A DNA stretch of 64,000 nucleotides from a virus. Every line of letters begins with the position of its first letter. Within the stretch, counting starts at the first letter, position 1. The position numbers and the translations under genes were made by a program. Shown piece by piece: positions 7,901 through 62,086 of this stretch. The notes beneath the pieces were generated by a model, which was not told where the DNA came from, searched no databases, and saw nothing but the letters and a program-made list of their open reading frames with translations. Location of the stretch: IMG/VR virus record IMGVR_UViG_3300025849_002201. One strand, given 5' to 3'.

Positions 7901-8889
7901 ACATAGCTGATCCAATCTTTCTCAAATAGATTTTTTACTGGTGGATCAAAACGTAATGAAATTTCAATGCCGTTATTTGCATCTATAGCAACATTTGCAA
8001 CACCGTTAGCTCTTGTTTCTACCGGAACAGTTGTGTCATTAATAATAAATCCGTACTTTGATGTTCTACCATAGGTTACAATTCTAGATGTATCCAAGTC
8101 AATAGACAAAGGAGATTCTAAGTTAGCAATCCAAAAATCATTATTGTAAGATACAATATCATTAATTTCATAGTTTATAGAATTGATGTATAGTTCTTTA
8201 TAGTTTTCTGGTTTAAAATATAAAAGTTTTGGATCTGTTACATAATGATAATCGCCGTTAACACTAGGAGGTCCTGAGCCATCATCAATAGTTGTTCCGT
8301 TTGCAACACTTAGTACATTATTACGTGTTAATCTTTCACCCTCAATATTTTCTACAATTGTTGATGCACTGTTGTATATAGCAACACCATTTATAGCAAC
8401 ACCTATTGCACCTGTAGGAGTATCTACTTTTACTTCTGGTGTGTCAGGCTCTAGGGGAATAGTAAAAAGCCAATCTTGCGGAGTTGCTGGGAAACTGTTT
8501 TGCGGATTAGGGTACGGTCCAAACGCATGCTCAGGTAATCCTGTTGAACTTACATAAAACAGCTGATCGTCAAAATCAGTAAATGTTGCTTCACCAAAAA
8601 ACTGTGAAGTTTGTAAGTTACTAATTTCAGATCCCAATGTAACTGGTAATTGTAAGTCGAACGTATCGCCTTCGATAATTTCAGGAATAAACTCTAACCA
8701 ATAACTTTCATTTCTTGGCAATATGCTTCGTCCGTCAACAATAGGATTATCTTTTATTGCACGAAATGTTTTTCCGTTAAACGATACAACATCGCCAATG
8801 GAGTATGCTCTGGTTAAATCATAATCAGAGCCTAATAATAGTGTTCCTATATTGTAATCTGAACGTTGTTTCCATATACTTGTAGCCAT
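4921..8889 (-). CDS. Baseplate wedge-like protein with YHYH and Ig-like repeats
   Basis: YHYH-type segment (GDYHY...HSPIIGYAFDG..IYG...YPNGTYAYF) and repeated G.LP.GL.L...G.I.G Ig-like units. Confidence 0.65.
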   Translation of the reverse strand: MATSIWKQRSDYNIGTLLLGSDYDLTRAYSIGDVVSFNGKTFRAIKDNPIVDGRSILPRNESYWLEFIPEIIEGDTFDLQLPVTLGSEISNLQTSQFFGEATFTDFDDQLFYVSSTGLPEHAFGPYPNPQNSFPATPQDWLFTIPLEPDTPEVKVDTPTGAIGVAINGVAIYNSASTIVENIEGERLTRNNVLSVANGTTIDDGSGPPSVNGDYHYVTDPKLLYFKPENYKELYINSINYEINDIVSYNNDFWIANLESPLSIDLDTSRIVTYGRTSKYGFIINDTTVPVETRANGVANVAIDANNGIEISLRFDPPVKNLFEKDWISYVTGIQHSPIIGYAFDGNPIYGSLGYSDPLDANSHPEFMTSSYILRDDLRQNGDTRDGYYEEDWAYLEGTGLLDQYNGRFCVTPEYPNGTYAYFSSCLKESPNTNTYPYLIGKKYYSTPLLPNGTGTKEGLNDVKFSIISGSLPRGLRIEKQRLRGTPLEVPNTLEYDFVIRAQYGAASIVEDRTFKLVVEGPDEPEWLTAEGNLAVGPNSTYYVLDGEFVDINLLATDDDIAAGQELEFFIGDNSGELPPGLTLTKEGRIFGFTEPVTPLGFEAVTGGGYSSDRYDFNPYDYAIRSQSGYDSFLYDNVGYDESDPTRSPKKASRFYEFIVSVNDSDSIAKRQFRIYVVGDDAARADNVSTKSSQDLFTADMTFVRKPIFTTPANLGVKRAGSFITLVIDVFDPNSLIGPIDYQLEPVNIDGTPSILPTGLTLDYITGEVAGVYPYQPEVTKEFNFTVRATRYNPSVADIVVVYGYVARPFAIGDTQLFFSTSTKDDLLTIVGATTYDPVKKKNLKVTAVDEVVIDTNSYVRVTFDSGLQFANDNITQGTVSFAFSTTITELDDDEFISERKQFTVRVQGEADGAINWITPSDLGDIPANSVSTVKIAAESTFPGTTVVYKLVDGKLPNGLSLIEDGEIIGRVRQFATIDKPGITIFDNGFLSFDGASTTLDRSYTFTIEAKDKFTINAVRRTFTMTITPLADRAYSNVFVKPLMASEKKLAWNTFVSDSNVFSTDIIYRPYDENFGIQRNLNSLIYAGIESKSYGEFAAVTSVGHKPRSLRIGELKTAEAKQVETEGAIYEVVYLELLDPYEKLNAGDTEDIISAAETIKISNSAEEITADQTNADIVKGIIDPNDTLYNRDDPMFFRNSIDALTVDSDINPNAPNTKYVSSLTNMRRRLQGIGITDNRFLPLWMKTRQSLTGKQPGYVRAIPIAYCKPGKSAELILKIKNYQKSTGFEFTQFDYYVDRYIIDATLGNSNTQFIVWPRNNKSI

Positions 8890-8911: not shown

Positions 8912-10516
8912 TTATCCGGCGAAAGGCAAGTTCTGTTGTTCGTTCCTTAACTTAAACACACCGTTGATAACTTTTAATCCATTTTTAGCAACATCAACAA
9001 TTCCTTTATTATACGGATTAAACAAGTATCTGTTAGGTCCGTTTAATAAACTAAATGAATTAGTATAATCGTCGTCTAAACCAGTATCATTTAGCTTTGC
9101 AGTTTGTGCATTATTGATAGCCCAGTCTTGTACTTGTTGAGGAGTACGACCAGGATATGCTTGTAAATACAATGCTGCGGCGCCAGCAACTTGTGGAGAC
9201 GCCATGCTTGTACCGCTGATGCTCATGCATCTATATGTTTCATTTAACGGATAGTTAAGCGACAATATTCCAAATTTGTTTATAGTAGAAGTTGTACTCA
9301 TAATGCCGGTACCCGGTGCAAGAATATTTACTCCTGGGCCATGTTCGCTTGAAACAGCACGGATCTCTCCACCTGCTACATTGTCATCAACGTTTCCTAC
9401 TATCATAGCACGATCACTAAATGGCGAGCCGCCTCTGTGATAGTAAACATTTCCGTTGGTACTTGACGTGTAAAAATTATCATAATCTACGCCGCCAGGA
9501 ACGTCAATCTTTTGATATGAATTACCTGCTGCGATGCATACAAATATTCCTTCATCAATCATTTCTTCAACGTCAACGTCTACTGATGCTACTCTTACAA
9601 CGTGTCTATATCCAGTACCGTTAAATGATCCGACCATACCTTTTGTAGTATCTCTAGCAGTTCCGGTCCACGGAGTACCTCTGTAGGTGCCTCCTGTTAT
9701 ATTAGAAAATATAGTACCATATCCCCAACTCATATTAACAATTGTTGGTCTTTTCTTGCCAGTAACATCGTCTACTAGTTTGTTTCTATGCCATAGTTTA
9801 ATAACATCAAACACATCACTAATAGGAATGCCTGTACCTGAATCACCGGGGCCTTCTAAGCCATTGACTTTAACACTATAGATCTGTGCGTTCTTTGCCC
9901 AACCATAGTTTGTTCCAGCAGCTATTCCGGCGCAATGTGTTCCGTGACCGTCATAATCTCTATAATGGTTTGCATTTTGTACACCAACTACGCCGCTTTG
10001 CTGATACCAATCAATAAGTTGTACACGACTGTTGCCTTTAGCATCATTAAATTCAGGATGTGAATATTCTATCCCACTGTCCTGAATAACAATGTCAACT
10101 CCACTTCCATCTAAATTGTAAGTATGATTAAACCCTGCTGGCACTGCTGTACTAGTATACGGATTATCTTGCTGATCACAACGTAATAGTCCCCAGTTTG
10201 CTCTTAGCGGATTAGAAGTAGAACCTGTTCTATCCATCGAAGCACCGCTTTGTACAACGTTAAGGCCAATTTGAATGTCGTCACGCTGTTCCGGCGGTAT
10301 CTCTACTGCTAATACTCTACTATCGTTGCGCAATGCTGCTGCTTCTTCAACAGTTAAAGCATAATGAGTGTTACGTAGAGATCCTGGTCTTGCATTTGCA
10401 ACATCAATTGACCTACTTGGAATGTCTCCTGCACCTGTTGATGCAATCATTTCTGTGTTAAAGGCATCGTAATCAACTCCTTTATTGAGTGTTACGATAT
10501 ATTCTTTTTCAGCCAT
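8912..10516 (-). CDS. Subtilase (S8) serine protease
   Basis: Catalytic triad motifs VIQDSG, HGTHCAG, SGTSMASPQVAG. Confidence 0.9.
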   Translation of the reverse strand: MAEKEYIVTLNKGVDYDAFNTEMIASTGAGDIPSRSIDVANARPGSLRNTHYALTVEEAAALRNDSRVLAVEIPPEQRDDIQIGLNVVQSGASMDRTGSTSNPLRANWGLLRCDQQDNPYTSTAVPAGFNHTYNLDGSGVDIVIQDSGIEYSHPEFNDAKGNSRVQLIDWYQQSGVVGVQNANHYRDYDGHGTHCAGIAAGTNYGWAKNAQIYSVKVNGLEGPGDSGTGIPISDVFDVIKLWHRNKLVDDVTGKKRPTIVNMSWGYGTIFSNITGGTYRGTPWTGTARDTTKGMVGSFNGTGYRHVVRVASVDVDVEEMIDEGIFVCIAAGNSYQKIDVPGGVDYDNFYTSSTNGNVYYHRGGSPFSDRAMIVGNVDDNVAGGEIRAVSSEHGPGVNILAPGTGIMSTTSTINKFGILSLNYPLNETYRCMSISGTSMASPQVAGAAALYLQAYPGRTPQQVQDWAINNAQTAKLNDTGLDDDYTNSFSLLNGPNRYLFNPYNKGIVDVAKNGLKVINGVFKLRNEQQNLPFAG

Positions 10517-10529
10517 TCTATTTTCCCTA

Positions 10530-12797
10530 TTAAGCTACTGTAATTGTTCCGAACATTGCACCACCGTGGTTAGTACATACATAGTAAAGTGTTGCCGGAG
10601 CGTCCATTGGAACTGTCCAAACGTATACACCTTCGTTGTCGCCACTTGTGCCTGTTGTGTATAAATCACCTGCTGAGTAACCTGCTACACCCGGATCAAC
10701 TGTTTGCAAATTAAACGGATGTGTTGCGCCGTTTGCACTATTATCAAATACATATGTATGGCCGCGATATACAGTAAATGCTGGATCACTTACAGTTCCA
10801 GCAAAACCTGGACCAGTAAATGTAAAGTCTGAAGTTCCGTTAGCGCCAAGTACCCATCCAAGTGTTGGACTCATCATAGGCATCCACATACCTGCTGTAT
10901 ATACATGCGGCTGTGGCAATGTAGCATCTGAAACAAATGCAGTATCGCCCTCGGCTGCTATAAATTCTGCTTGTAATCCTGCAAGTCCATATTCACCTAA
11001 ACTAAACAGTCCGTCGATAATATTTACTTGTCCATTAGGTACAGCTATTTCTAAATTTGTTTCTGACTCTAAGCGTGGAACTCCTGCACCAGATGTATTA
11101 ATAGTAGTTGCATCAACTTCAGCAACAGTTAGCCTTCCGTCAATACTAACATCGCTTGAGAAGTCAGTTGCTTGTACAATAGTAATGTTACTACTGTCAG
11201 ATGTTTGTATCGAACTACCTACAATGTCAAGTCCACTAATCGCTACCGAACCACCTGCTAGACTTTGAATACCAACAGTGCCTGATCCTGCGTTAATATT
11301 AACGTTGCCATTAACAGAACTAATTGCAAGACCTTGTCCACTAGTTTCTTCTTGAATATCTGAAACTAATACTGCACCAGTAAATGTTGTTTGTGTTGCA
11401 CTAATAGTTGTATTGGTAGCAGTTTCAAAGAAGTTAGTGTCAACGTAACCTTTAGTTGCTGCATGCAATGCTAGTGTTGGATCACCTGATAGTGTTAACG
11501 CTCCAAGCATTGGAATAGCACCACTTGTTGGAAGTTTTGTATTGTCTTCAATAACAATGTTTGTACTACCATTAAACGCAACACCGTTAATTGTTCTCGG
11601 AGTAGCTAGTGTTTGTGCTGTAGTTGCAGCAATGTTACCAGTTGCAGTTAAGTTTCCGCCTACTGTTAAGTTACCTGTTGTAACAGTACCAAATGTTACT
11701 GCTGTAGTTGTTAATGTAGCGCCTGATAAATCAACAGTTCCAGTAATCACTAACGGATTTAATGTTGTTGATAGTGTTGTACTTGCGCCGTCGTCTAATA
11801 AATTAAAATCTTGTCCTACAAGTTCAAGGTTGCCGCCGAGCGCACTAATAGTTAAATCTGGACCTCCGTTGATTGTAGCTACATTAAGAATTTGACCAGC
11901 ATTTAGTGTGTTAATAGTTGAGTTGTTAAAATTACCTTCTACAGCACTAACGACATTATTAACGCCGTCAACGATCACAGTACTATCATCACCGAACACA
12001 CTACCTACCATGTCGCCTTCTAGTTCGCCAAGTAGTAGACCTTCAAACGTACCAAAAATCGTAACACCGTCGTCGAGTGTTTGTGTTGCATCAATTACTA
12101 TAGTTGTACCGTCATTAGCATAAACTGTGTTAAGCGTTGCGTTACCAGTTAAGTTACCTGTGACATTACCAGTTAAGTTGTTTACTAGTGTTCCTTCGAT
12201 TACATCTGCAGGAATTGATGAATTCATACTATCAACTAGTAGTGTATCGTCAAAGCCTATAACGTCACCTTTTAGGGAACCAGTTGAGCCTCCGCCGTCT
12301 GCAACAAACTCTATATTGCCGCCTTCTACAGTAACACTACCAGTTAAAACAGATCCTGCAATTACCGACAACCAAGCTGCGCCATCGCCGCCTAGTGTGT
12401 ATGTTAAATTAGTTGCTGGAAGAATATTACTTGCAACACCGCCTGCAAAGTTAATGGCATCATTTGCATCGCCTGTTCCAATGTTAATACTTCCGGAAAG
12501 TGTAATATCACCTGTAATGTCAATATTACCTGTACCAACTATATCGTGTCCTCTAAGATGCAAGTCACCGTCTAGGAAAGGATCATTTGGTGCAAGTTGT
12601 GCTTCTGAATAAAAAGGATCAGTTGGTGGAACACTTAGTCCAGCAACAACGCCGCCTCCTGATGCAGGATTTCCCCCCGGGGTAATACCATCCCCAACAA
12701 ATATTTGTTTGTTGTCGATAGTATATATTAATTCACCGGTCTGTGGGGTATAGACTAGTCTCTCTGCCTCTGTACCCCTTTTAAGTTTTAGTGCCAT
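10530..12797 (-). CDS. Tail fibre protein
   Basis: Mtd-like N-terminus (LKRGT...GEL.Y..D), PRTINGVAF repeat, cupredoxin-like C-terminus (LYYVCTNH). Confidence 0.75.
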   Translation of the reverse strand: MALKLKRGTEAERLVYTPQTGELIYTIDNKQIFVGDGITPGGNPASGGGVVAGLSVPPTDPFYSEAQLAPNDPFLDGDLHLRGHDIVGTGNIDITGDITLSGSINIGTGDANDAINFAGGVASNILPATNLTYTLGGDGAAWLSVIAGSVLTGSVTVEGGNIEFVADGGGSTGSLKGDVIGFDDTLLVDSMNSSIPADVIEGTLVNNLTGNVTGNLTGNATLNTVYANDGTTIVIDATQTLDDGVTIFGTFEGLLLGELEGDMVGSVFGDDSTVIVDGVNNVVSAVEGNFNNSTINTLNAGQILNVATINGGPDLTISALGGNLELVGQDFNLLDDGASTTLSTTLNPLVITGTVDLSGATLTTTAVTFGTVTTGNLTVGGNLTATGNIAATTAQTLATPRTINGVAFNGSTNIVIEDNTKLPTSGAIPMLGALTLSGDPTLALHAATKGYVDTNFFETATNTTISATQTTFTGAVLVSDIQEETSGQGLAISSVNGNVNINAGSGTVGIQSLAGGSVAISGLDIVGSSIQTSDSSNITIVQATDFSSDVSIDGRLTVAEVDATTINTSGAGVPRLESETNLEIAVPNGQVNIIDGLFSLGEYGLAGLQAEFIAAEGDTAFVSDATLPQPHVYTAGMWMPMMSPTLGWVLGANGTSDFTFTGPGFAGTVSDPAFTVYRGHTYVFDNSANGATHPFNLQTVDPGVAGYSAGDLYTTGTSGDNEGVYVWTVPMDAPATLYYVCTNHGGAMFGTITVA

Positions 12798-27969: not shown

Positions 27970-29253
27970 TTACGCTATTTTTAGCAATATTGTATCAGGA
28001 TTGCAACGTCCGTTAAGTTTTGTATCAGTAGTCGGAATGTCATCTAAGAACTTGCGCAGTGCTACCTTACCTGCACCTTTGAATTCTTTCAACTGTGCTT
28101 CTGGCTTGCGTAGTGTCTTTTGGATACTTTGTGCTTCATCAAATCCTATGATTGTAGTACCCTTGACCTGCAAGCCACTCCCTGCTCGACCCATACCTTT
28201 GGGATCAATGTTCTTAGCAATATATTTGCCTAGCTTGCGTGTCTTGGTATTAAATACCCACAACTCGTTTGCACTAATAATATCTACAGGGTTAATACTT
28301 GCAAGTTTATACTTGTCGTCTGTCTTAGCGTACTTCAGCTTTTCAACTAGCTTGTCTGCACTCTTAGGCTTAGCCTTGCGCGGCGCACGAGTTGCTTTTG
28401 CTGTATCAATTACAAAGTCTAGTGATTGTATCAAACCTTCAATAGCACTTACAAACATCTTAATTTCTGCTTTCTTAAGATGCGCATATCCTTCTTTAAG
28501 TTGTGCCCACATGTCTGCTTCGTGTTCAGTCATCTTCTTTAATTGACCAGCTGTAGGCATACGCTCTAGGTCTTTGAAGTCAGCAATTTCGCCTTCAAAG
28601 AAGGACTTGATCTTACGAGCGTGTGCTTGCGTAACTCCTTGCTTTTGAAAATGCTTTTTAAAGTCAAAACCTTTTGGATCAAAGTTCTTACGATCATTGA
28701 ACCAGCCATCTAACCATTCGTCAATTGCTTCGCTTTGTAATAGAGCTTGATCTCGGATGCGTTCTTGGATAGTAGGAACGTATACGTTCTGTTTGCTCGC
28801 CGCGTCTTCTTGCACTTCTGCAACAATTGCATTGCCTTCTTTAATAATTCGTTCTAGTTGAGGCTTGAGCCATGCAGTTACGGGCTTCAACTCGCCCGAT
28901 GTACCAGGAAGACTGTCCCAGTGCTGTGCGTGTTTAGGATTAAGGTCTGGCATACCGAGACGCAACAATTTACAAATGTATCCAACAGTTACATTTATAC
29001 CGCGTTTCTTTACAGCATCAATATCTGCCTTGGCGTAATCGTTTTCTTTCATCCATGCTAAGGTGTCTGGAAGTAAGTCACTAGCTTTAAAGTTTGCATA
29101 CAAGTCGGCTTTGTAATCTCGTACTCGCTTGTGGTAATCTGCACCACTCCAATTTTCCCAATTTTCAAAATCATAAACATTTTTTTTGTTTTTTGCGATT
29201 GGTGCTAGACGTACTTTTTTACGCGGTGCCTTGATGCCGATGCCTTTTGCCAT
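27970..29253 (-). CDS. Hypothetical phage protein (427 aa)
   Basis: Long ORF with RBS and its own promoter. Confidence 0.75.
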   Translation of the reverse strand: MAKGIGIKAPRKKVRLAPIAKNKKNVYDFENWENWSGADYHKRVRDYKADLYANFKASDLLPDTLAWMKENDYAKADIDAVKKRGINVTVGYICKLLRLGMPDLNPKHAQHWDSLPGTSGELKPVTAWLKPQLERIIKEGNAIVAEVQEDAASKQNVYVPTIQERIRDQALLQSEAIDEWLDGWFNDRKNFDPKGFDFKKHFQKQGVTQAHARKIKSFFEGEIADFKDLERMPTAGQLKKMTEHEADMWAQLKEGYAHLKKAEIKMFVSAIEGLIQSLDFVIDTAKATRAPRKAKPKSADKLVEKLKYAKTDDKYKLASINPVDIISANELWVFNTKTRKLGKYIAKNIDPKGMGRAGSGLQVKGTTIIGFDEAQSIQKTLRKPEAQLKEFKGAGKVALRKFLDDIPTTDTKLNGRCNPDTILLKIA

Positions 29254-29287
29254 TTAACTTACTCCTAAGTTTTAATTTATATTACTT

Positions 29288-29316
29288 ATTATATAGCAAT
29301 GTAAATAAAATGTCAA
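29288..29316 (-). promoter_or_regulatory. Sigma70-type early promoter
   Basis: TTGACA-17-TATAAT. Confidence 0.8.
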
Positions 29317-29323
29317 CCTATAT

Positions 29324-29399
29324 TGGTCCTACTTCTTGGATTCGAACCAAGCCTCCAAAATCCACAATTTTGTGTGCTAACCACTAACACTAAAGTAGT
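29324..29399 (-). tRNA. trnH: tRNA-His(GTG); A73, no G-1, A1:G72 mismatch
   Basis: Cloverleaf, anticodon arm CAAAA-TTGTGGA-TTTTG, T-loop TTCGAAT, CCA encoded. Confidence 0.85.
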
Positions 29400-29403
29400 A
29401 CGT

Positions 29404-29811
29404 TTAACCTACGATTTCGATATCTACGCTTTCGCTGTAATACCCGTTGCTTGTACCGTACCAGCGAATATCTACACTACCTTTCATAGTTCTGAAACGG
29501 TAGTATGTCCAAGTTTCGCTTTCACTCCATTCGTCATCTTCATATTTGCTTTCGCCGTCGTAGTTGCTTACTTCCTCAACCAACAGCAAAGGAGTTCCTA
29601 CTAAGTCATCCAAGTCACCTACGATGTCTTCAATGCTTACACTCTCGCAACAATCTTGGGCGTGATACATACGCACATAGTGATCTTCAGTCAAGTGGAA
29701 GCGAAGTTCGTAATCATCAAGATTTACTACTTTGCAAAGAATTCGTCCTTGCAAATCTTCAAACGATTTTACTGGATCTTGTAAATGGTTATATGTTGCG
29801 TACTTGCTCAT
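29404..29811 (-). CDS. Hypothetical acidic phage protein
   Basis: Start at MSKYAT with RBS. The longer track ORF overlaps tRNA-Phe. Confidence 0.7.
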   Translation of the reverse strand: MSKYATYNHLQDPVKSFEDLQGRILCKVVNLDDYELRFHLTEDHYVRMYHAQDCCESVSIEDIVGDLDDLVGTPLLLVEEVSNYDGESKYEDDEWSESETWTYYRFRTMKGSVDIRWYGTSNGYYSESVDIEIVG

Positions 29812-29831
29812 CTTGTTCTCTCTACTATAAA

Positions 29832-29907
29832 TGGTGCTAGAGGACGGATTCGAACCGCCGACACCCTGGGCTTCAACCAAGTGCTCTACCAACTGAGCTA
29901 CTCTAGC
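29832..29907 (-). tRNA. trnF: tRNA-Phe(GAA)
   Basis: Canonical cloverleaf, loop TTGAAGC, CCA. Confidence 0.95.
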
Positions 29908-29908
29908 A

Positions 29909-29985
29909 TGGCAGTCCTGAAGGGACTCGAACCCCTAACCTACACGTTCGTAGCGTGTTGCTCTAATCCATTGAGCTACAGGACT
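29909..29985 (-). tRNA. trnR: tRNA-Arg(ACG)
   Basis: Arm ACACG-CTACGAA-CGTGT, CCA. Confidence 0.95.
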
Positions 29986-29989
29986 AAAC

Positions 29990-30060
29990 TGGTAGTAAAT
30001 GATAGAATCGAACTATCTCTTCAGGCTTATGAGACCCGAGTCCGGACCACCGGATTTACT
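29990..30060 (-). tRNA. trnM: Atypical tRNA(CAT), probably Met; 71 nt with miniature D-arm
   Basis: Acceptor AGTAAAT/ATTTACT, loop CTCATAA, T-arm GATAG-TTCGATT-CTATC. D-arm is CCGG-TGGT-CCGG with no U8 linker. Confidence 0.7.
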
Positions 30061-30061
30061 A

Positions 30062-30138
30062 TGGAGTGCATGACAGGACTTGAACCTGCATAAAACGGAT
30101 TTGCAATCCGGGGCCTAACCATTCAGCTACACATGCAC
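30062..30138 (-). tRNA. trnC: tRNA-Cys(GCA)
   Basis: Loop TTGCAAA, U73, CCA. Confidence 0.92.
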
Positions 30139-30139
30139 A

Positions 30140-30214
30140 TGGCTGGGGAGGAAGGATTCGAACCTTCGGTACACAGGATCAAAACCTGTTGCCTTACCGC
30201 TTGGCTACTCCCCA
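30140..30214 (-). tRNA. trnQ: tRNA-Gln(TTG)
   Basis: Arm ACAGG-TTTTGAT-CCTGT, CCA. Confidence 0.95.
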
Positions 30215-30219
30215 AAACT

Positions 30220-30296
30220 TGGTGGACTCTCTGGGATTCGAACCCAGGACCTACCGATTAAAAGTCGGTTGCTCTAACCAGCTGAGCTAAGAGTCC
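30220..30296 (-). tRNA. trnK: tRNA-Lys(TTT)
   Basis: Arm ACCGA-CTTTTAA-TCGGT, CCA. Confidence 0.95.
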
Positions 30297-30297
30297 A

Positions 30298-30382
30298 TGG
30301 TGGGGAAGTGTGGTTACGCTCCACTCCCGGTAAAAGACGAGTTTTACAGACTCGCTGCGGAAACTATCCGCTTTACTTCCCC
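30298..30382 (-). tRNA. trnY: tRNA-Tyr(GTA) with non-canonical T- and D-loops
   Basis: Acceptor GGGGAAG/CTTCCCC, arm CGAGT-CTGTAAA-ACTCG, T-loop AGCGTAA. Confidence 0.8.
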
Positions 30383-30383
30383 T

Positions 30384-30458
30384 TGGTTGCTGTGGGTAGG
30401 ATTGAACTACCGACCTAAGAGTTATCAGCTCTTTGCTCTACCACTGAGCTACACAGCA
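30384..30458 (-). tRNA. trnI: tRNA-Ile(GAT)
   Basis: Arm AAGAG-CTGATAA-CTCTT, CCA. Confidence 0.95.
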
Positions 30459-30464
30459 TTAATT

Positions 30465-30539
30465 TGGCACCGGTGGAGAGAATCGAACTCCCTTCGCGCA
30501 GTTTTGGAGACTGCCGCTCTGCCAATGAGCTACACCGAT
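30465..30539 (-). tRNA. trnW: tRNA-Trp(CCA)
   Basis: Arm GCAGT-CTCCAAA-ACTGC, CCA. Confidence 0.95.
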
Positions 30540-30562
30540 ATAAAACTTTTTCCTTCTTCCAT

Positions 30563-30598
30563 AAAAAAACCCCTACTAATATCGCTACTAGCAGGGGT
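30563..30598 (-). terminator. Intrinsic terminator (attenuator 1) directly upstream of tRNA block 1
   Basis: ACCCCTGCTAGT-AGCGAT-ATTAGTAGGGGT followed by T run. Its 5' arm overlaps the 3' arm of an antiterminator. Confidence 0.9.
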
Positions 30599-30628
30599 GT
30601 GTTAAAATAACTTTTCTTAACTACTACG

Positions 30629-30700
30629 TCAAGACACACTCCTGCCTTCGCTAAACCAGCGAATGCAATATTGTTGAATATGTTTCATCATTGTAGTCAT
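30629..30700 (-). CDS. Leader peptide 1, MTTMMKHIQQYCIRWFSEGRSVS (putative attenuation sensor)
   Basis: 23-codon ORF between a promoter and the terminator. Codons 4-16 encode only M,K,H,I,Q,Y,C,R,W,F, the ten tRNA specificities downstream. Confidence 0.88.
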   Translation of the reverse strand: MTTMMKHIQQYCIRWFSEGRSVS

Positions 30701-30735
30701 TTCTATTTCTCTTTGTTTAATTCTTTGTATAACTT

Positions 30736-30764
30736 AATATACTATGTTATTTATCATCTGTCAA
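30736..30764 (-). promoter_or_regulatory. Promoter for leader 1 (sigma70-type with embedded late-type TAAATA)
   Basis: TTGACA-gatgataaataacatag(17)-TATATT. Confidence 0.8.
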
Positions 30765-30798
30765 CCACTATTTGACAATTTAGACAGAAAATTTAGTT

Positions 30799-30873
30799 TG
30801 GTATCCCGTAGGAGAATCGAACTCCTCTTTCCTGCGTGAAAGGCAAGCGTCCTAACCGATAGACGAACGGGAC
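30799..30873 (-). tRNA. trnE: tRNA-Glu(TTC)
   Basis: Loop CTTTCAC, CCA. Confidence 0.95.
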
Positions 30874-30879
30874 AAAAAA

Positions 30880-31142
30880 CGGAAGTAAAAAAGCAAGTAA
30901 TGAACTAGACAATGTGCATTAAGGTACTTCGCATCGCGCTTCACCTTCCAAGCAATCTACAATAAGCAACATGCAGAGGGCTTGTTTATTTCCAGCAATC
31001 AAAGTGCAACTGTTCTGTAAATCTGGAGCATACAAGCACGGAGACGTTTCAAGCGTCCTGAGCTATAGTTGTTGTTTAATTTCTAGTAAACTAGAAACAC
31101 GTAACAACACGGTTGTCCATCCTCATCTCAATTTTACTTCCG
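30880..31142 (-). ncRNA. Candidate ~260-nt structured ncRNA
   Basis: Perfect 11-bp closing inverted repeat (30880-30890/31132-31142), several internal hairpins, no ORF. Confidence 0.55.
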
Positions 31143-31170
31143 GGTAGTTTTACTAAACTACCAAAACCTC

Positions 31171-31734
31171 TTAGAGGATGCCTGCTCGTTCTAAGAAACG
31201 TGCTGTTTCCTCATCCAACTCAATTTCTGTTTGAACATTAAGCTCAAGCAGTGTATCCTGCAACTTCTGCTTCTGACGCTTCAAGTCAGCAACAGTGCGT
31301 TTAAAATCTTCCACTTCTGCCTTGGTAAAGATTGAAGTGTCCACAGCTTCACGACCGTACCCGTAACGATCTTCCTTGCCGTCTTTCAACTTGGCAATCT
31401 TACCTTCAATAACAGCATCACTTAGACGAGCTGCTTTTGTAGCGTAGGTGTTGTTGAACTGGATTTCTTTCTCCAAGTGTGCAACATCTGCTAGCAAATC
31501 GTTAATGCTTTCATCAGCATTTGCACGAGCAACTGCTTTGCGGATAGCGTATAGCGCACCCACTAGCTTGTTGCGTGTTGCACTGTGAGTTATGAATACA
31601 TCACGCACAGCATCGATCTGAGCAGAGTGATCTTCAAACTCGTTAACGCTTACTGATGTTTCGAAAGTCAAACCTTTGATCATTTCGTTGATGCTGTTCT
31701 GTACAGCGTTTGCTTTGCGTAGTGTAATGTTCAT
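31171..31734 (-). CDS. Hypothetical coiled-coil protein
   Basis: 187-aa ORF with RBS and upstream promoter. Confidence 0.75.
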   Translation of the reverse strand: MNITLRKANAVQNSINEMIKGLTFETSVSVNEFEDHSAQIDAVRDVFITHSATRNKLVGALYAIRKAVARANADESINDLLADVAHLEKEIQFNNTYATKAARLSDAVIEGKIAKLKDGKEDRYGYGREAVDTSIFTKAEVEDFKRTVADLKRQKQKLQDTLLELNVQTEIELDEETARFLERAGIL

Positions 31735-31759
31735 CTTCTTTTCCTTTGTGTATGTGTAT

Positions 31760-31787
31760 ATTATACAGTATTTTACTGCTTTGTCAA
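31760..31787 (-). promoter_or_regulatory. Sigma70-type promoter inside tRNA block 2
   Basis: TTGACA-16-TATAAT. Confidence 0.7.
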
Positions 31788-31924
31788 CTATTATTTTAAA
31801 GTGGCATCAGCTTATTCTAGTCATTTGTTAACGGGCCCAGCTGCCTTCAAGCTACTATGTAGCTTCTTTTTACACCTACGTGGGTAACTAGAATTGTTTT
31901 TATTCCCACTCTTCAAAATAAACT

Positions 31925-32001
<77 letters not shown>

Positions 32002-32006
32002 AAATA

Positions 32007-32082
32007 TGGTAGGACGTAACGGGTTCGAACCGCTGACATTTGCCGTGTAAAGGCAACGCTCTACCAACTGAGCTAACGTCCT
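32007..32082 (-). tRNA. trnV: tRNA-Val(TAC)
   Basis: Arm TTGCC-TTTACAC-GGCAA, CCA. Confidence 0.95.
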
Positions 32083-32083
32083 A

Positions 32084-32173
32084 TGGCGGAAGCGGTGGGA
32101 TTCGAACCCACGGAACCTTGCGGTTCGCTAGTTTTCAAGACTAGTGCCTTCAGCCAGACTCGGCCACACTTCC
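32084..32173 (-). tRNA. trnS: tRNA-Ser(TGA)
   Basis: Arm CTAGT-CTTGAAA-ACTAG, long variable arm, G73. Confidence 0.95.
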
Positions 32174-32177
32174 TAAT

Positions 32178-32199
32178 TGGTAGCAGGTGTTACACCCGC
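32178..32199 (-). other. CCA-ended microhelix resembling the tRNA-Gly acceptor stem
   Basis: GCGGGTG-TAA-CACCTGC-TA-CCA. The first 11 nt are identical to the 5' end of tRNA-Gly(TCC). Confidence 0.5.
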
Positions 32200-32285
32200 A
32201 ATAAACTTTTAAAACTGGCAGTCCAACATGCACTCTTTTAACTTATCCGCCCAGGTCATTCGACAACGATAAGTACCAGTTAATT

Positions 32286-32359
32286 TGGAGCGGGAGAAGG
32301 GAATCGAACCCTCGTAGTAACGTTGGCAACGTTCTGCTCTACCATTGAGCTACACCCGC
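32286..32359 (-). tRNA. trnG: tRNA-Gly(GCC)
   Basis: Loop TTGCCAA, U73, CCA. Confidence 0.93.
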
Positions 32360-32460
32360 AATATATAAACGTATAGGCTCCTACTGAAAGTGCTATACAA
32401 ACTCACCTACACTTTGTTTAACTTGCTCGCTCTATGAGCGTTGTAGGCTTAACCGCAATA

Positions 32461-32546
32461 TGGTGTCAATCGAGGAGTCGAACCTCGCCGCAGTAGGTGA
32501 CATGACGCCTGTAGTGTCTGTTACTGTTAGCGAACCCGCATTGACA
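32461..32546 (-). ncRNA. tRNA-like RNA with intact acceptor, T-arm and CCA but non-canonical D/anticodon domain
   Basis: TGTCAAT...CGAGG-TTCGACT-CCTCG-ATTGACA-CCA. Confidence 0.6.
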
Positions 32547-32550
32547 TATA

Positions 32551-32626
32551 TGGTGGAGGTTACCGGGATCGAACCGATGACCTATTGCTTGCAAAGCAAT
32601 CGCTCTCCCAACTGAGCTAAACCCCC
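32551..32626 (-). tRNA. trnA: tRNA-Ala(TGC)
   Basis: G3:U70, loop TTTGCAA, CCA. Confidence 0.95.
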
Positions 32627-32631
32627 GTTAT

Positions 32632-32708
32632 TGGTCGGAGTACAAGGATTCGAACCTTGGACCCTCTGCTCCCAAAGCAGATGCGCTACCAGGCTGCGCC
32701 ATACTCCG
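32632..32708 (-). tRNA. trnP: tRNA-Pro(TGG)
   Basis: Arm TCTGC-TTTGGGA-GCAGA, CCA. Confidence 0.95.
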
Positions 32709-32806
32709 TAAATTAGTTTAAGCAGTTTTGCGTCCTACTTAGGACGGCCAGTCTCCTGGGCACCATTTGCTCAATTGTTTTACAAGGGGAACAAAACCCT
32801 TAAACT

Positions 32807-32889
32807 TGGTGCCCAATGAGGGACTCGAACCCCCACGCTTTCGCACTGGTACCTAAAACCAGCGTGTCTACCAATTCCACCAATTGGGC
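32807..32889 (-). tRNA. trnL: tRNA-Leu(TAG)
   Basis: Arm CTGGT-TTTAGGT-ACCAG, variable arm, A73. Confidence 0.95.
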
Positions 32890-32950
32890 AATAAGATTCT
32901 AAAGGCTTAACTTGTCCCTACTAGGCAACAAGTGCTAAAGAATCATTGTA

Positions 32951-33026
32951 TGGTGCCGCAACAAGGATTCGAACCCTGGACCTACTGATTACAAATCAGT
33001 TGCTCTACCAACTGAGCTATTGCGGC
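32951..33026 (-). tRNA. trnT: tRNA-Thr(TGT)
   Basis: Arm ACTGA-TTTGTAA-TCAGT, CCA. Confidence 0.95.
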
Positions 33027-33109
33027 GTTATCTTCTTACTCTGCAACTAGGACAAAAATCATCGTGTCCTAGTTCAGTTTTACATTCACTACATGTTTTC
33101 ATATAGTAC

Positions 33110-33331
33110 TTATTCGTCGTTGTTGACATCTTCAACAATATTGAGTTGATAAGAACGAATAATTTGTTCTTCTAAGTCGTTCTTATTAAACTCACCCGAT
33201 TCAAGTCTACGTAGTGCATCAGCTGCACTTGAGGCTTGCTTAGATCTAACTAGATAAGCACATACACCTACTAAGTCTGTTCTGTTGATGCCTGTTGCAT
33301 CCATTGCTTCTTCAATAAAGACTCGTCCCAT
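33110..33331 (-). CDS. Small hypothetical protein within the tRNA array
   Basis: 73 aa. Own promoter TTGACA-16-TATACT at 33370-33397. Confidence 0.6.
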   Translation of the reverse strand: MGRVFIEEAMDATGINRTDLVGVCAYLVRSKQASSAADALRRLESGEFNKNDLEEQIIRSYQLNIVEDVNNDE

Positions 33332-33406
33332 GTGTGTAACCTTTCATGCGTTACTGTTTCTATACATTAAGTATAACACCTACACCGTAGATGTCAACCT
33401 GTTAAA

Positions 33407-33481
33407 TGGAGCGGGTGACAAGGATCGAACTTGCGACGAACAGCTTGGAAGGCTGACACTCTACCACTGAGTTACACCCGC
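33407..33481 (-). tRNA. trnG: tRNA-Gly(TCC)
   Basis: Loop CTTCCAA, U73, CCA. Confidence 0.95.
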
Positions 33482-33485
33482 ATAT

Positions 33486-33580
33486 TGGCTTTCCAGCTAC
33501 CTTAGGAGTTTACCCTATAGTGTTTCACTTTACGCTATGACAGCTTTTAACTGAGAGATCATAGCAACTAAGACTGGAAA
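33486..33580 (-). ncRNA. CCA-ended RNA with tRNA-like acceptor stem and non-tRNA body
   Basis: 5' TTTCCAG pairs with 3' CTGGAAA-G-CCA. Internal stems GCTATGA/TCATAGC and CTTAG/CTAAG. Confidence 0.55.
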
Positions 33581-33582
33581 CT

Positions 33583-33670
33583 TGGCGGAGCGACTGGGAG
33601 TCGAACCCAGTGACCGTTTGCACGGTCTACAGATTAGCAATCTGCTGCATTACCATCCTGCCCCCGCTCC
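33583..33670 (-). tRNA. trnS: tRNA-Ser(GCT)
   Basis: Loop TTGCTAA, long variable arm, G73. Confidence 0.95.
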
Positions 33671-33737
33671 GTAAACATATCCCCGATTTATCAGATTCGT
33701 TGCATCAGCTATACTGTATGCAGGATATGTTTAAACT

Positions 33738-33813
<76 letters not shown>

Positions 33814-33815
33814 AT

Positions 33816-33983
33816 AAACTCTACTTACAACTACACTGTTTGCAGACTCGAACTGCGGTTGCCCGTCGGCAAATGAGGACCACCTCACGAACGGAATCGA
33901 ACCGTCTACCTCCCATTATTCACAGTGTATGTGTAAGTAGAGTTTTAGTGATGTATGTTGGTAGCATACATCTTCTACTTACA
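33816..33983 (-). ncRNA. Structured 5' leader RNA with two T-loop hairpins and alternative pairings
   Basis: 24-bp inverted repeat (33816-33839/33922-33945, 2 mismatches) enclosing GCAG-TTCGAGT-CTGC and ACGG-TTCGATT-CCGT. A third copy of the stem strand lies at 33973-33983. Confidence 0.6.
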
Positions 33984-34071
33984 TCTCCTATCATCGCTTG
34001 CGCTAAGGAGCGTAAAATTTTCTATCTAAATTGTCAAAGAGCGTGTAAACATTGCTGCTTACTGTTTATAC

Positions 34072-34100
34072 AGTGTAACAAATAATCTTGTACTTGTCAA
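34072..34100 (-). promoter_or_regulatory. Sigma70-type promoter
   Basis: TTGACA-17-TACACT. Confidence 0.7.
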
Positions 34101-34158
34101 CCTGTTTGTTTAATCTTTCTAGCAACTCTAAACTACTGTTCTTTGTTGCTATGTGTTT

Positions 34159-34187
34159 ATTATAGTGTATTACTTAGTGCCTGTCAA
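34159..34187 (-). promoter_or_regulatory. Sigma70-type promoter (consensus)
   Basis: TTGACA-17-TATAAT, just downstream of attenuator 2. Confidence 0.8.
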
Positions 34188-34207
34188 CTATTATTTTGCC
34201 TAATCAT

Positions 34208-34240
34208 AAAAAAAGCCCCTAACATTTCTGCTAAGGGCTT
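34208..34240 (-). terminator. Intrinsic terminator (attenuator 2) upstream of tRNA block 2
   Basis: AAGCCCTTAGCA-GAAA-TGTTAGGGGCTT-TTTTT. Confidence 0.9.
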
Positions 34241-34265
34241 TTAAAAATCTTGTAGTATGTTCTAC

Positions 34266-34352
34266 TTAACTCTTACAAACCCCGCAGGCATCCGCACCCG
34301 GATTACTTGATCCGACTGTCGAATATTCTACTGATGTTAGTACGAGTTTCAT
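34266..34352 (-). CDS. Leader peptide 2, MKLVLTSVEYSTVGSSNPGADACGVCKS (putative attenuation sensor)
   Basis: 28-codon ORF with AAGGA RBS. 19 of codons 3-22 encode L,V,T,S,E,G,N,P,A,D, the ten amino acids of tRNA block 2, and all ten appear. Confidence 0.85.
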   Translation of the reverse strand: MKLVLTSVEYSTVGSSNPGADACGVCKS

Positions 34353-34411
34353 TGAACTTACTTTTCCTTTTGTTATAGTTTATTTATCATCTTGAACAAA
34401 AAACTATCTGT

Positions 34412-34990
34412 TTATGAGTTTACAATACGTTCGTAAATCTCTTTCCAATTGTTTACTCGAGCAGCATTGCCGCTGTAGTCTTCGTTGTGATCATGAGCAA
34501 TTAGAATACCATCTAGTCCCATGCTAATACCACAGTCTACGTTTTGTGGCTTGTCTTCAATCCAGTAACAACCTGTGTCACGATACTGTTCGAGTACATC
34601 ATCCTTGTCAGCACCGGTATCTAAATAAATGTACTTTTCAAATACGCTGTCTCCAAACATCTCACGCAAGTTCTTAGTACGCAAATGTTGCGAATAATCA
34701 TCATTGCTCAAACTAGTAATACAGTGGAAGATGTAACCGTGTTCTGCATGTAGTTTCTTGACATAGTGAATAGCATCACGCAGTGGCGGAAGTTTACGAA
34801 TCCAGGCACTTTCGTTAAACATACGTACAAGACGCATTGTTTCAGCACGATCTAGTCCGTACTTGATGTCCATTTGATAGTTACCAGTTTCTACAATTGT
34901 ATAACCATGTCGCTTCATCCATTGATCAAACGCATATTCCCAGTCAAACAACACACCGTCTGCGTCAGTTAAAATACATTTATTTTTCAT
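34412..34990 (-). CDS. HAD-family 5'(3')-nucleotidase-like phosphatase
   Basis: DADGVL motif I, IEDKP motif IV. Promoter TTGACA-17-TATAAT at 35025-35053. Confidence 0.8.
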   Translation of the reverse strand: MKNKCILTDADGVLFDWEYAFDQWMKRHGYTIVETGNYQMDIKYGLDRAETMRLVRMFNESAWIRKLPPLRDAIHYVKKLHAEHGYIFHCITSLSNDDYSQHLRTKNLREMFGDSVFEKYIYLDTGADKDDVLEQYRDTGCYWIEDKPQNVDCGISMGLDGILIAHDHNEDYSGNAARVNNWKEIYERIVNS

Positions 34991-35049
34991 ATAGTGCCTC
35001 TTTCTATTGCCTTATTATGTTTATATTATACAATAGAAAGAGACTGCTG

Positions 35050-35379
35050 TCAACCTTTATTATACCATTCTGTTTCGTATTCTTCTACAATGTTTACTGC
35101 ATTAATACGATCATAACGGAAACTGCGCCAACCTTTTGCGTTTACGTCCCACACACTTACAACTGCATCTGATATCTCGCGAACCTTCTTTTGGCTCATT
35201 GCATCTGTTTTAGTTGCAGCTGGCTTCATGTCTTCACGTAGCGTACAAGTCATTACACGCTTGTCACCATTGAGTTTAGTAAAGTCAACTACTAGTACGT
35301 TTTGTTCCAGTTGGAACTTTAGATCCGCTTTTGTCGGGATCCCCTTTAGTGTTGCTATCGTGTCGCTTACTTCTGTCAT
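35050..35379 (-). CDS. WYL/SH3-like phage protein (DUF2693-like)
   Basis: FTKLNGDKRVMTCTL...VWDV..KGWRSFRYDRI. Start trimmed to MTEVS. Confidence 0.7.
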   Translation of the reverse strand: MTEVSDTIATLKGIPTKADLKFQLEQNVLVVDFTKLNGDKRVMTCTLREDMKPAATKTDAMSQKKVREISDAVVSVWDVNAKGWRSFRYDRINAVNIVEEYETEWYNKG

Positions 35380-62060: not shown

Positions 62061-62086
62061 GTCTACTTCCTAATTCTTTTTAGTAT

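Follow-up and report, generated by a model that had tools for sequence, protein, structure and literature searches.

A candidate tRNA-matched leader-peptide attenuator before a tRNA gene block of an uncultured T4-like phage

Introduction

Enterobacterial leader-peptide attenuators, including trpL, hisL, leuL and pheL, combine a short translated leader with three pairings of the leader RNA (1:2, 2:3 and 3:4) and an intrinsic terminator. Some are multivalent: the ilvGMEDA leader senses Leu, Val and Ile, and the thr leader senses Thr and Ile. Aminoacyl-tRNA synthetase genes are likewise subject to such control, via the pheST (pheM leader) attenuator and via T-box leaders; we know of no pheM- or T-box-type system that controls tRNA genes. 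The tRNA genes of phages are usually discussed in terms of codon-usage compensation or of counter-defence against host systems that cleave tRNAs and, to our knowledge, the control of their expression is largely unknown. A full-text literature search, in which few subscription journals were covered, found no published description of leader-peptide control of tRNA genes; older work, e.g. on T5, could contain one, and old T5 papers are said to mention such ORFs, for which the search gave no confirmation.

Here we describe a locus in a 64,000-nucleotide stretch of viral DNA (IMG/VR record IMGVR_UViG_3300025849_002201; the window), in which two blocks of tRNA genes are each preceded by a short leader. 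Judging from its sequence, its predicted folds and its relatives, the leader before the second block (leader 2) is probably a working tRNA-matched, ribosome-mediated (leader-peptide) transcription attenuator. As in trpL, hisL, leuL and pheL, a ribosome at the end of the leader ORF would shield segment 2, and segment 1 and the stretch immediately behind it contain the sensing codons. Leader 2 differs from these systems in that their targets are biosynthetic enzymes, whereas its own are tRNA genes; in that the signal would be the supply of tRNA rather than that of an amino acid; in that it has no runs of a single codon; and in that strong promoters lie behind its terminator, with an upstream late-type motif in place of a dedicated sigma-70 promoter. 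With the ilvGMEDA and thr leaders it shares the proposed sensing of several amino acids by one leader with mixed codons; those leaders, however, monitor two or three amino acids with many codons for each, whereas leader 2 spreads its codons over ten amino acids and twelve tRNA species, at one to three for each. As with pheM and the T-box leaders, genes of the translation apparatus would be regulated by the sensing of tRNA status via conditional termination, but pheM senses a single amino acid, and T-box RNAs bind uncharged tRNA directly and have no leader ORF. The mechanism class is thus that of the textbook leader-peptide attenuator; what is new is the tRNA-gene target, the checklist logic, in which twelve tRNAs are represented by one to three codons apiece, and the bypass promoters behind the terminator.

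Results

The leader 2 locus and its gene order

The phage represented by the window is uncultured, marine or estuarine, and T4-like; DNA runs from several marine studies contain the stretch, and its proteins are distantly related to those of phiM12-, PA5oct- and Kyanoviridae-type phages. ARAGORN and Rfam searches of the whole window identified 21 tRNA genes, all on the minus strand and within 29328-33813, which fall into two blocks (Table 1; the coordinates of leader 2 locus features are all given for the minus strand). Block 2, the presumed regulated genes, encodes 12 tRNA species for 10 amino acids, including two Ser and two Gly isoacceptors. In the direction of transcription, the order is phosphatase promoter, phosphatase gene, leader ORF, terminator, two sigma-70 promoters and then tRNA-Asn at 33813.

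Table 1. Features of the leader 2 locus and of the associated tRNA blocks
Feature	Coordinates	Strand	Comment
Consensus sigma-70 promoter of phosphatase gene	35053-35025	-	
NT5C/HAD-like phosphatase gene	34990-34412	-	upstream of leader 2
12-mer GATGATAAATAA	34380..34391	-	contains ATAAATA (34387-34381); candidate T4-type late promoter core
Shine-Dalgarno-like AAGGA	34365..34369	-	12 nt before ATG; same distance in all homologues
Segment 1	34328..34362	-	start-codon region and first codons; pairs with segment 2 in full-length fold
Leader 2 ORF	34352..34266	-	28 codons plus stop; reads MKLVLTSVEYSTVGSSNPGADACGVCKS; codons 3-22 sensing; last 6-7 codons overlap segment 2
Central hairpin inside ORF	34289..34325	-	GGAU/AUCC core over Gly-Ser-Ser-Asn-Pro codons
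Segment 2	34254..34287	-	ORF 3' end, stop codon and spacer; partner is segment 1 or segment 3
Segment 3	34228..34255	-	includes terminator 5' arm; antiterminator with segment 2, 23 pairs
Intrinsic terminator	34208..34242	-	stem 34242-34229 / 34224-34211; GAAA loop; U-run 34214-34208
Consensus sigma-70 promoter behind terminator	34159..34187	-	TTGACA, 17 nt, TATAAT; 12/12; bypasses attenuator
Second sigma-70-like promoter behind terminator	34072..34100	-	TTGACA, 17 nt, TACACT
tRNA block 2 (presumed regulated genes)	30799-33813	-	Asn, Ser(GCU), Gly(UCC), Thr, Leu, Pro, Ala, Gly(GCC), Ser(UGA), Val, Asp, Glu
Leader 1 (MTTMMKHIQQYCIRWF...)	30563-30764	-	antiterminator: GGCAGGAGUGUGU pairs with ACACACCCCUGCU
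tRNA block 1	29328-30539	-	His, Phe, Arg, Met, Cys, Gln, Lys, Ile, Trp

The upstream unit, comprising the phosphatase gene and its promoter (34412..35053), delivers its transcript into leader 2: the spacer between the phosphatase stop codon and the start of leader 2 is 59 nt, and a terminator scan found no minus-strand terminator between the two. This proximity, together with the strong promoters that stand directly behind the terminator, would also suit an ordinary operon end, at which the terminator closes the phosphatase transcript and insulates the tRNA promoters, the small ORF being incidental and its resemblance to the tRNA set a matter of common amino acids. The distance from the terminator of leader 2 to the first tRNA gene, tRNA-Asn, is about 400 nt, of which about 250 nt, between the second downstream promoter and tRNA-Asn, is structured RNA. 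In this structured region (33814-33990, minus strand), GTAAGTAGAG / CTCTACTTAC motifs recur and hairpins carry T-loop-like sequences; the region is kept in relatives (L003:7150-7330; L092 at about 8600-8837, on the reverse strand of the stored locus), and L092 has an inserted HNH-type endonuclease-like ORF immediately before tRNA-Asn.

Predicted alternative folds of the leader RNA

The minimum free energy (MFE) fold of the full leader RNA obtained with RNAfold (-57.7 kcal/mol; z -7.06) comprises a 1:2 helix of 27 pairs, the central hairpin and the terminator, the stem of which has 14 pairs when its A-U ends are counted; in the finished RNA, the 1:2 helix encloses the start codon. When the terminator 3' arm was omitted, RNAfold instead gave the 23-pair 2:3 helix, which occupies 10 nt of the 14-nt terminator 5' strand (34242-34229). 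An initial annotation of the locus, made from the DNA sequence, had proposed that 13 of 14 nt at the ORF end pair with a strand overlapping the 5' arm of a GAAA-loop terminator; both 14-mers are in place, GGGGTTTGTAAGAG (34283-34270) pairs with TTTTTAAAAGCCCT (34247-34234) in the fold computed with the terminator 3' arm omitted, and the terminator itself was found at 34242-34211, with a U-run at 34214-34208. Of the two strands of the 2:3 helix, the one from the ORF end has the leader stop codon at its 3' end. As modelled, the layout is the classical four-segment one (1:2 / 2:3 / 3:4), in which the central hairpin of leader 2 is possibly a pause hairpin.

In these respects leader 2 resembles described attenuators: a short ORF with a start codon and a ribosome-binding site, albeit at long spacing, lies just upstream of an intrinsic terminator; terminator and antiterminator are mutually exclusive, with the antiterminator strand inside or beside the ORF end; a 1:2 anti-antiterminator is present in the MFE fold, predicting termination if the leader is untranslated; and the sensing codons are cognate to downstream tRNA genes. 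It departs from them in that its terminator does not stand between the only promoter and the regulated genes, two sigma-70 promoters lying behind it. No T-box or other Rfam cis-regulatory family was found near the gathering threshold in 29000-34500, even at E values up to 1.

The leader ORF and its codon list

The unannotated ORF proposed at 34266-34352 is present there, and the AAGGA assigned as its ribosome-binding site lies at 34369-34365, although its 12-nt spacing from the ATG is long for that role. Codons 3-22 are as the initial annotation listed them, covering ten amino acids and both the Ser and both the Gly isoacceptors; by strict wobble rules, each of the 12 tRNA species of block 2 finds a cognate codon among them. 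The fit is imperfect for four of the 20 sensing codons, CTC, GTC and GCC requiring extended wobble and TAT having no partner in block 2. Among the 48,374 stop-free windows of 20 codons in the six frames of the whole stretch, 12/12 coverage was reached by the leader ORF and at one other place; with windows of 27 codons, the whole-ORF length, taken from long ORFs, it was reached by 31 of 17,928. At the level of amino acids the match over the whole leader 2 ORF is weak (p about 0.02), because the ten block 2 amino acids are common ones that make up most of any protein, and this weak match would fit an incidental ORF at an operon end. Each block 2 tRNA has one to three codons in the leader, mostly non-adjacent; since these are scattered single codons, in contrast to the classical runs of one codon, sensitivity to any single tRNA may be low. 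Immediately after the leader, GTTAAGTAG (34254-34268, minus strand) carries stop codons in two frames; in L083, which has a one-base indel, the second stop in this region is used and the position of the ORF end is unchanged.

The one codon that the initial annotation had noted as an outsider, the Tyr codon TAT, indeed pairs with no block 2 tRNA, and an Rfam search at E values up to 1 found no hidden tRNA-Tyr in block 2 of the window. Two relatives, L003 and L085, have a tRNA-Tyr in block 2 together with Tyr in leader 2, and TAT in leader 2 of the window is therefore best read as what looks like a relic. In the window, a tRNA-Tyr(GUA)-like cloverleaf lies between tRNA-Ile and tRNA-Lys (30383-30297, minus strand); it has an acceptor stem of 7-8 bp, a CCA end, a good anticodon arm and a non-canonical T-loop (AGCGUAA), the aberrant T-loop being the reason why ARAGORN and Rfam miss it. 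Tyr occurs in leader 1 only in the window, L092 and G002, and L092 and G002 have a canonical tRNA-Tyr between their Ile and Lys tRNAs.

Relatives of leader 2 and conservation of the pairings

A blastn search with 33800-34500 against 50,697 phage records returned no match among cultured phages, and neither did a search of IMG/VR for an exact 32-mer of leader 2. The nearest named phage, C48C1, has 60% identity at the phosphatase gene, is non-syntenic and has no tRNAs beside that gene. When neighbours of the phosphatase gene were inspected, the leader was present in L003 alone among 80 loci; L015/L016, L026, L041 and L049 have tRNAs and no matching leader. Homologues of leader 2 were identified in IMG/VR via the phosphatase gene and two degenerate peptide patterns (L003/L084, L083/L086/L087, L085, L088 and L082), by synteny (G002) and with a pattern comprising the upstream 12-mer region and the start context, from which the coding part was excluded (L107, L136, L152, L155 and L111/L124). 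All leader 2 units have an ATG frame of 27-31 codons (37 in L111), an AAGGA at equal distance, a terminator directly after the frame and tRNA genes downstream; despite indels, the stop codon lies in or just after segment 2 in all 12 units. In G002 and L107 the unit lies behind genes other than the phosphatase gene. In L003 (6806-6853), and likewise in L083 and L085, a 15-codon ORF (MTAEEYWKWIHANVQ) with a GGAGG ribosome site follows immediately after the leader 2 terminator; L085 differs from L003 in this ORF by synonymous changes only, and it is absent from the window, which has a sigma-70 promoter there instead.

The 2:3 antiterminator is present in 12 homologous units of uncultured marine phages, with differing arm sequences. 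In seven genomes, pairing with the ORF 3' end takes up 8-10 nt of a terminator 5' arm that is 9-10 nt long (z -2.8 to -5.4; 0-2 of 300 shuffles were as stable), and in five further leader 2-type units the antiterminator has z values of -2.2 to -3.0. The terminator is kept in all homologues; its arms vary between units (GCCCUUAGCA, CCCUCCUAG, CCUUCCAAGC, GCCCCAAGC and CCCCCAAC), both of them differing in sequence in L082, G002 and L136, and the ORF-end strand varies in step. The 1:2 helix was also found in the MFE folds of L083, L085, L088 and L082. An RNAalifold consensus contained the central hairpin and the terminator only, with the long-range helices, including 1:2, missing; each sequence was therefore folded separately.

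Comparison of the window with L003 is informative as to what is conserved at the ORF end. An insertion and a deletion shift the frame of the last five codons (GVCKS versus RGLQS), with retention of the G-run, and both pairing strands are shorter by one base; among the homologues more widely, peptide tails differ by frameshift (GVCKS, RGLQS, GVCKVK and others) and the G-run is kept. Judged by these sequences, it is the RNA rather than the peptide that is under selection at the end of the leader ORF. Around the central hairpin, synonymous positions show high conservation, and substitutions in codons 3-22 remain within the amino-acid set of the block. A peptide function for the conserved G-x-x-N-P motif was considered and rejected in favour of an RNA constraint, since the central hairpin, read as codons, yields the motif, and this hairpin is placed alike, with a different stem (CUAGGG/CCCUAG), in L107 and L155.

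Leader composition follows tRNA content

The residues of leader 2 and of leader 1 were compared with the tRNAs unique to each block in five genomes that have two leaders, the seven tail codons being trimmed. Fisher p values were 6e-6 for the window, which bears out the complementary amino-acid sets proposed in the initial annotation, 7e-6 for L003, 4e-7 for L083, 2.5e-3 for G002 and 2.4e-4 for L107, with totals of 82 concordant and 4 discordant amino acids; the related units are homologous, so these statistics are not independent. Without trimming, p for the window was 1.5e-3 and the totals were 76 concordant versus 11 discordant.

The partition itself differs in L107 (leaders at 427-516 and 8989-9066), in which the 'block 2' set is joined by Trp, Gln, Cys and Met tRNAs, and tRNA-Glu is grouped with those for Lys, Phe, Ile and Tyr. 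The L107 leaders follow their own blocks, Gln and Trp codons being in the leader 2 homologue and Glu (twice) in the other leader; block A encodes both Gln(UUG) and Gln(CUG) tRNAs, and its leader has both CAA and CAG and covers all 13 block amino acids. The L136 leader covers 11 of 11. In L111 (6088-6201; the same in L124) a leader of 37 codons, followed by a terminator, holds all 20 amino acids, and the associated block has 25 tRNA genes for 19 amino acids, all of which the leader covers; the upstream GATGATAAATA motif and the start context are common to the L111 leader and the leaders of the window. The L107, L136 and L111 units were found by a pattern lacking the coding part and are still codon-matched to their blocks. 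Similarly, L082 has Trp in its leader and a tRNA-Trp in its block. There are also mismatches: the L083 and L088 leaders have Glu and Tyr codons for which no tRNA was detected, and leader 2 of G002 has two Phe codons and one Trp codon, the matching tRNAs of which are in block 1.

Comparison with leader 1

Leader 1 is preceded by a sigma-70 promoter (30764-30736), and tRNA-Trp lies 30 nt after its terminator. Its 13-residue core is unique among 64,087 windows. In the L003 counterpart (10690-10880), one compensatory G-C to A-U change in the antiterminator was seen by eye, and the substitutions between the window and L003 (H/Q, Q/K and Y/H) stay within the block 1 set. The two leaders had been described as having the same architecture with unrelated sequences. 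The design is the same, but leader 2 lacks a strong sigma-70 promoter in front, and two promoters and about 400 nt follow its terminator; the sequences are not wholly unrelated, as the exact 12-mer GATGATAAATAA occurs upstream of both leaders and, within the window, nowhere else.

Promoters before and behind the terminator

The ATAAATA motif lies 28 nt before the leader 2 ATG, and the corresponding transcript would start near 34374. There are 14 copies of ATAAATA in the window, of which ten are within 90 nt upstream of same-strand genes and two are before the leaders; non-coding DNA makes up 11% of the window. Genes preceded by ATAAATA and having a PHROG function encode baseplate, tail / tail-fibre connector and virion proteins, and large structural genes have the motif 16-39 nt ahead of their start codons (e.g. 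the copies at 62084, 55151, 13616, 12837, 8909 and 4918, all minus strand). By its distribution, ATAAATA is probably the late promoter core of this phage; in relatives the motif upstream of leader 2 is kept as GATAAATA or CTAAATA. The exact TATAAATA was rejected as a late promoter, three copies being found versus 6.9 expected in the window; it is the shorter ATAAATA that is enriched.

No sigma-70 promoter with at least 10 of 12 matches was found within 250 nt upstream of leader 2, where there are weak candidates only (e.g. TTGTTC, 16 nt, TATAAC), and a sigma-70 promoter immediately before the leader was rejected on this basis. Strong sigma-70 promoters after the terminator are present in 8 of 11 related units. 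Since two promoters lie behind the terminator, block 2 can be expressed without the attenuator, and leader 2 cannot be its sole control; with none that is strong before leader 2, the leader could gate upstream transcription only, which the ATAAATA motif suggests to be late. Metatranscriptome assemblies from one marine study contain up to 56% of the 31-mers of 34200-34400, with no strand or end information and with possible DNA carry-over, and give a weak hint of expression.

Discussion

The leader ORF, the three alternative pairings and their conservation, and the match between leader codons and tRNA genes, together with its co-variation, are observed features of the locus. The core proposal of the initial annotation, i.e. 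a translated codon-list leader coupled to a terminator/antiterminator switch, is supported, at the level of computation, by the folding, by helix-level covariation across 12 units and by the co-variation of leaders with tRNA genes.

We infer that the leader is translated, that ribosomes stall on it, and that read-through is regulated and late in timing. Transcripts would enter leader 2 from the promoter of the phosphatase gene and, by inference, from a T4-type late promoter at ATAAATA. An undelayed ribosome would reach the stop codon and cover segment 2, such that the 3:4 terminator forms and transcription ends at 34208-34214. A ribosome delayed on codons 3-22 would instead cover segment 1 and leave segment 2 free to pair with the terminator 5' arm (2:3), in which case RNA polymerase would continue for about 400 nt into the tRNA genes. 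When there is no translation, 1:2 and 3:4 would both form, leading to termination. The net effect would be negative feedback, with slow decoding of block 2 codons giving rise to more block 2 tRNAs. Because there are two strong sigma-70 promoters behind the terminator, tRNA synthesis early in infection should not depend on the attenuator; its main role would come after sigma-70 promoters are shut off, when late-type transcription and that from the upstream gene must pass it.

Three other explanations merit consideration, the best placed of which is the ordinary operon end described above. We regard it as unlikely, since it does not account for the conservation of the 2:3 helix despite changed arms, for the frameshifted peptide tail with its retained G-run, for coverage of all 12 tRNA species including both Ser and both Gly isoacceptors, or for the manner in which Gln, Trp, Glu and Tyr codons switch leaders with their tRNAs; further, the G002 and L107 units sit behind other genes.

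Slightly less probable is that leader 2 is a translation-coupled attenuator which reports general translation capacity (ribosome availability, or the early/late state) rather than particular tRNAs, the codon match being a by-product of phage codon usage. The evidence for the RNA switch fits this explanation equally, single scattered codons confer little specificity, and the phage tRNAs read its preferred A-ending codons anyway; however, shared codon usage cannot explain why two leaders in one genome use complementary sets that follow their own blocks, nor do the sets re-partitioned in L107 accord with it. Least probable of the three is that the frame is untranslated and belongs to a structured non-coding RNA, for instance one that is released at the terminator as a stable small RNA, that directs processing or that binds a protein; this would be in keeping with the very stable fold, the conserved synonymous positions around the central hairpin, the long Shine-Dalgarno spacing and the buried start codon, but not with the retention of the ATG frame and AAGGA in 12 of 12 units despite indels, of a stop codon in or just after segment 2, and of codon 3-22 substitutions confined to the amino-acid set of the block.

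A tRNA-matched, leader-peptide attenuator before block 2 is thus the reading that we favour. If this is correct, tRNA genes would for the first time be known as the target of an attenuator, and multivalent attenuation, so far of two or three amino acids, would reach ten. Such a leader would also provide a sequence signature for regulated tRNA clusters in metagenomes, and a compact natural sensor of tRNA supply that may be reusable in synthetic biology. The co-variation of leaders with tRNA genes would help to recognize the functional members among odd tRNA-like genes, such as the Tyr gene at 30297-30383.

More broadly, the results may bear on how marine T4-like phages maintain decoding during infection, via a testable link from decoding speed to tRNA synthesis. 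We consider it an evenly balanced proposition that these phages have a decoding homeostat, in which each tRNA cluster is guarded by a 'checklist' leader with one or a few codons per tRNA and in which, late in infection, with the sigma-70 promoters off, a cluster is transcribed again only if ribosomes falter on any of its codons, as could result from host tRNA depletion or from cleavage by anticodon nucleases. The leaders would then evolve in step with the gain and loss of tRNA genes and with their movement between clusters.
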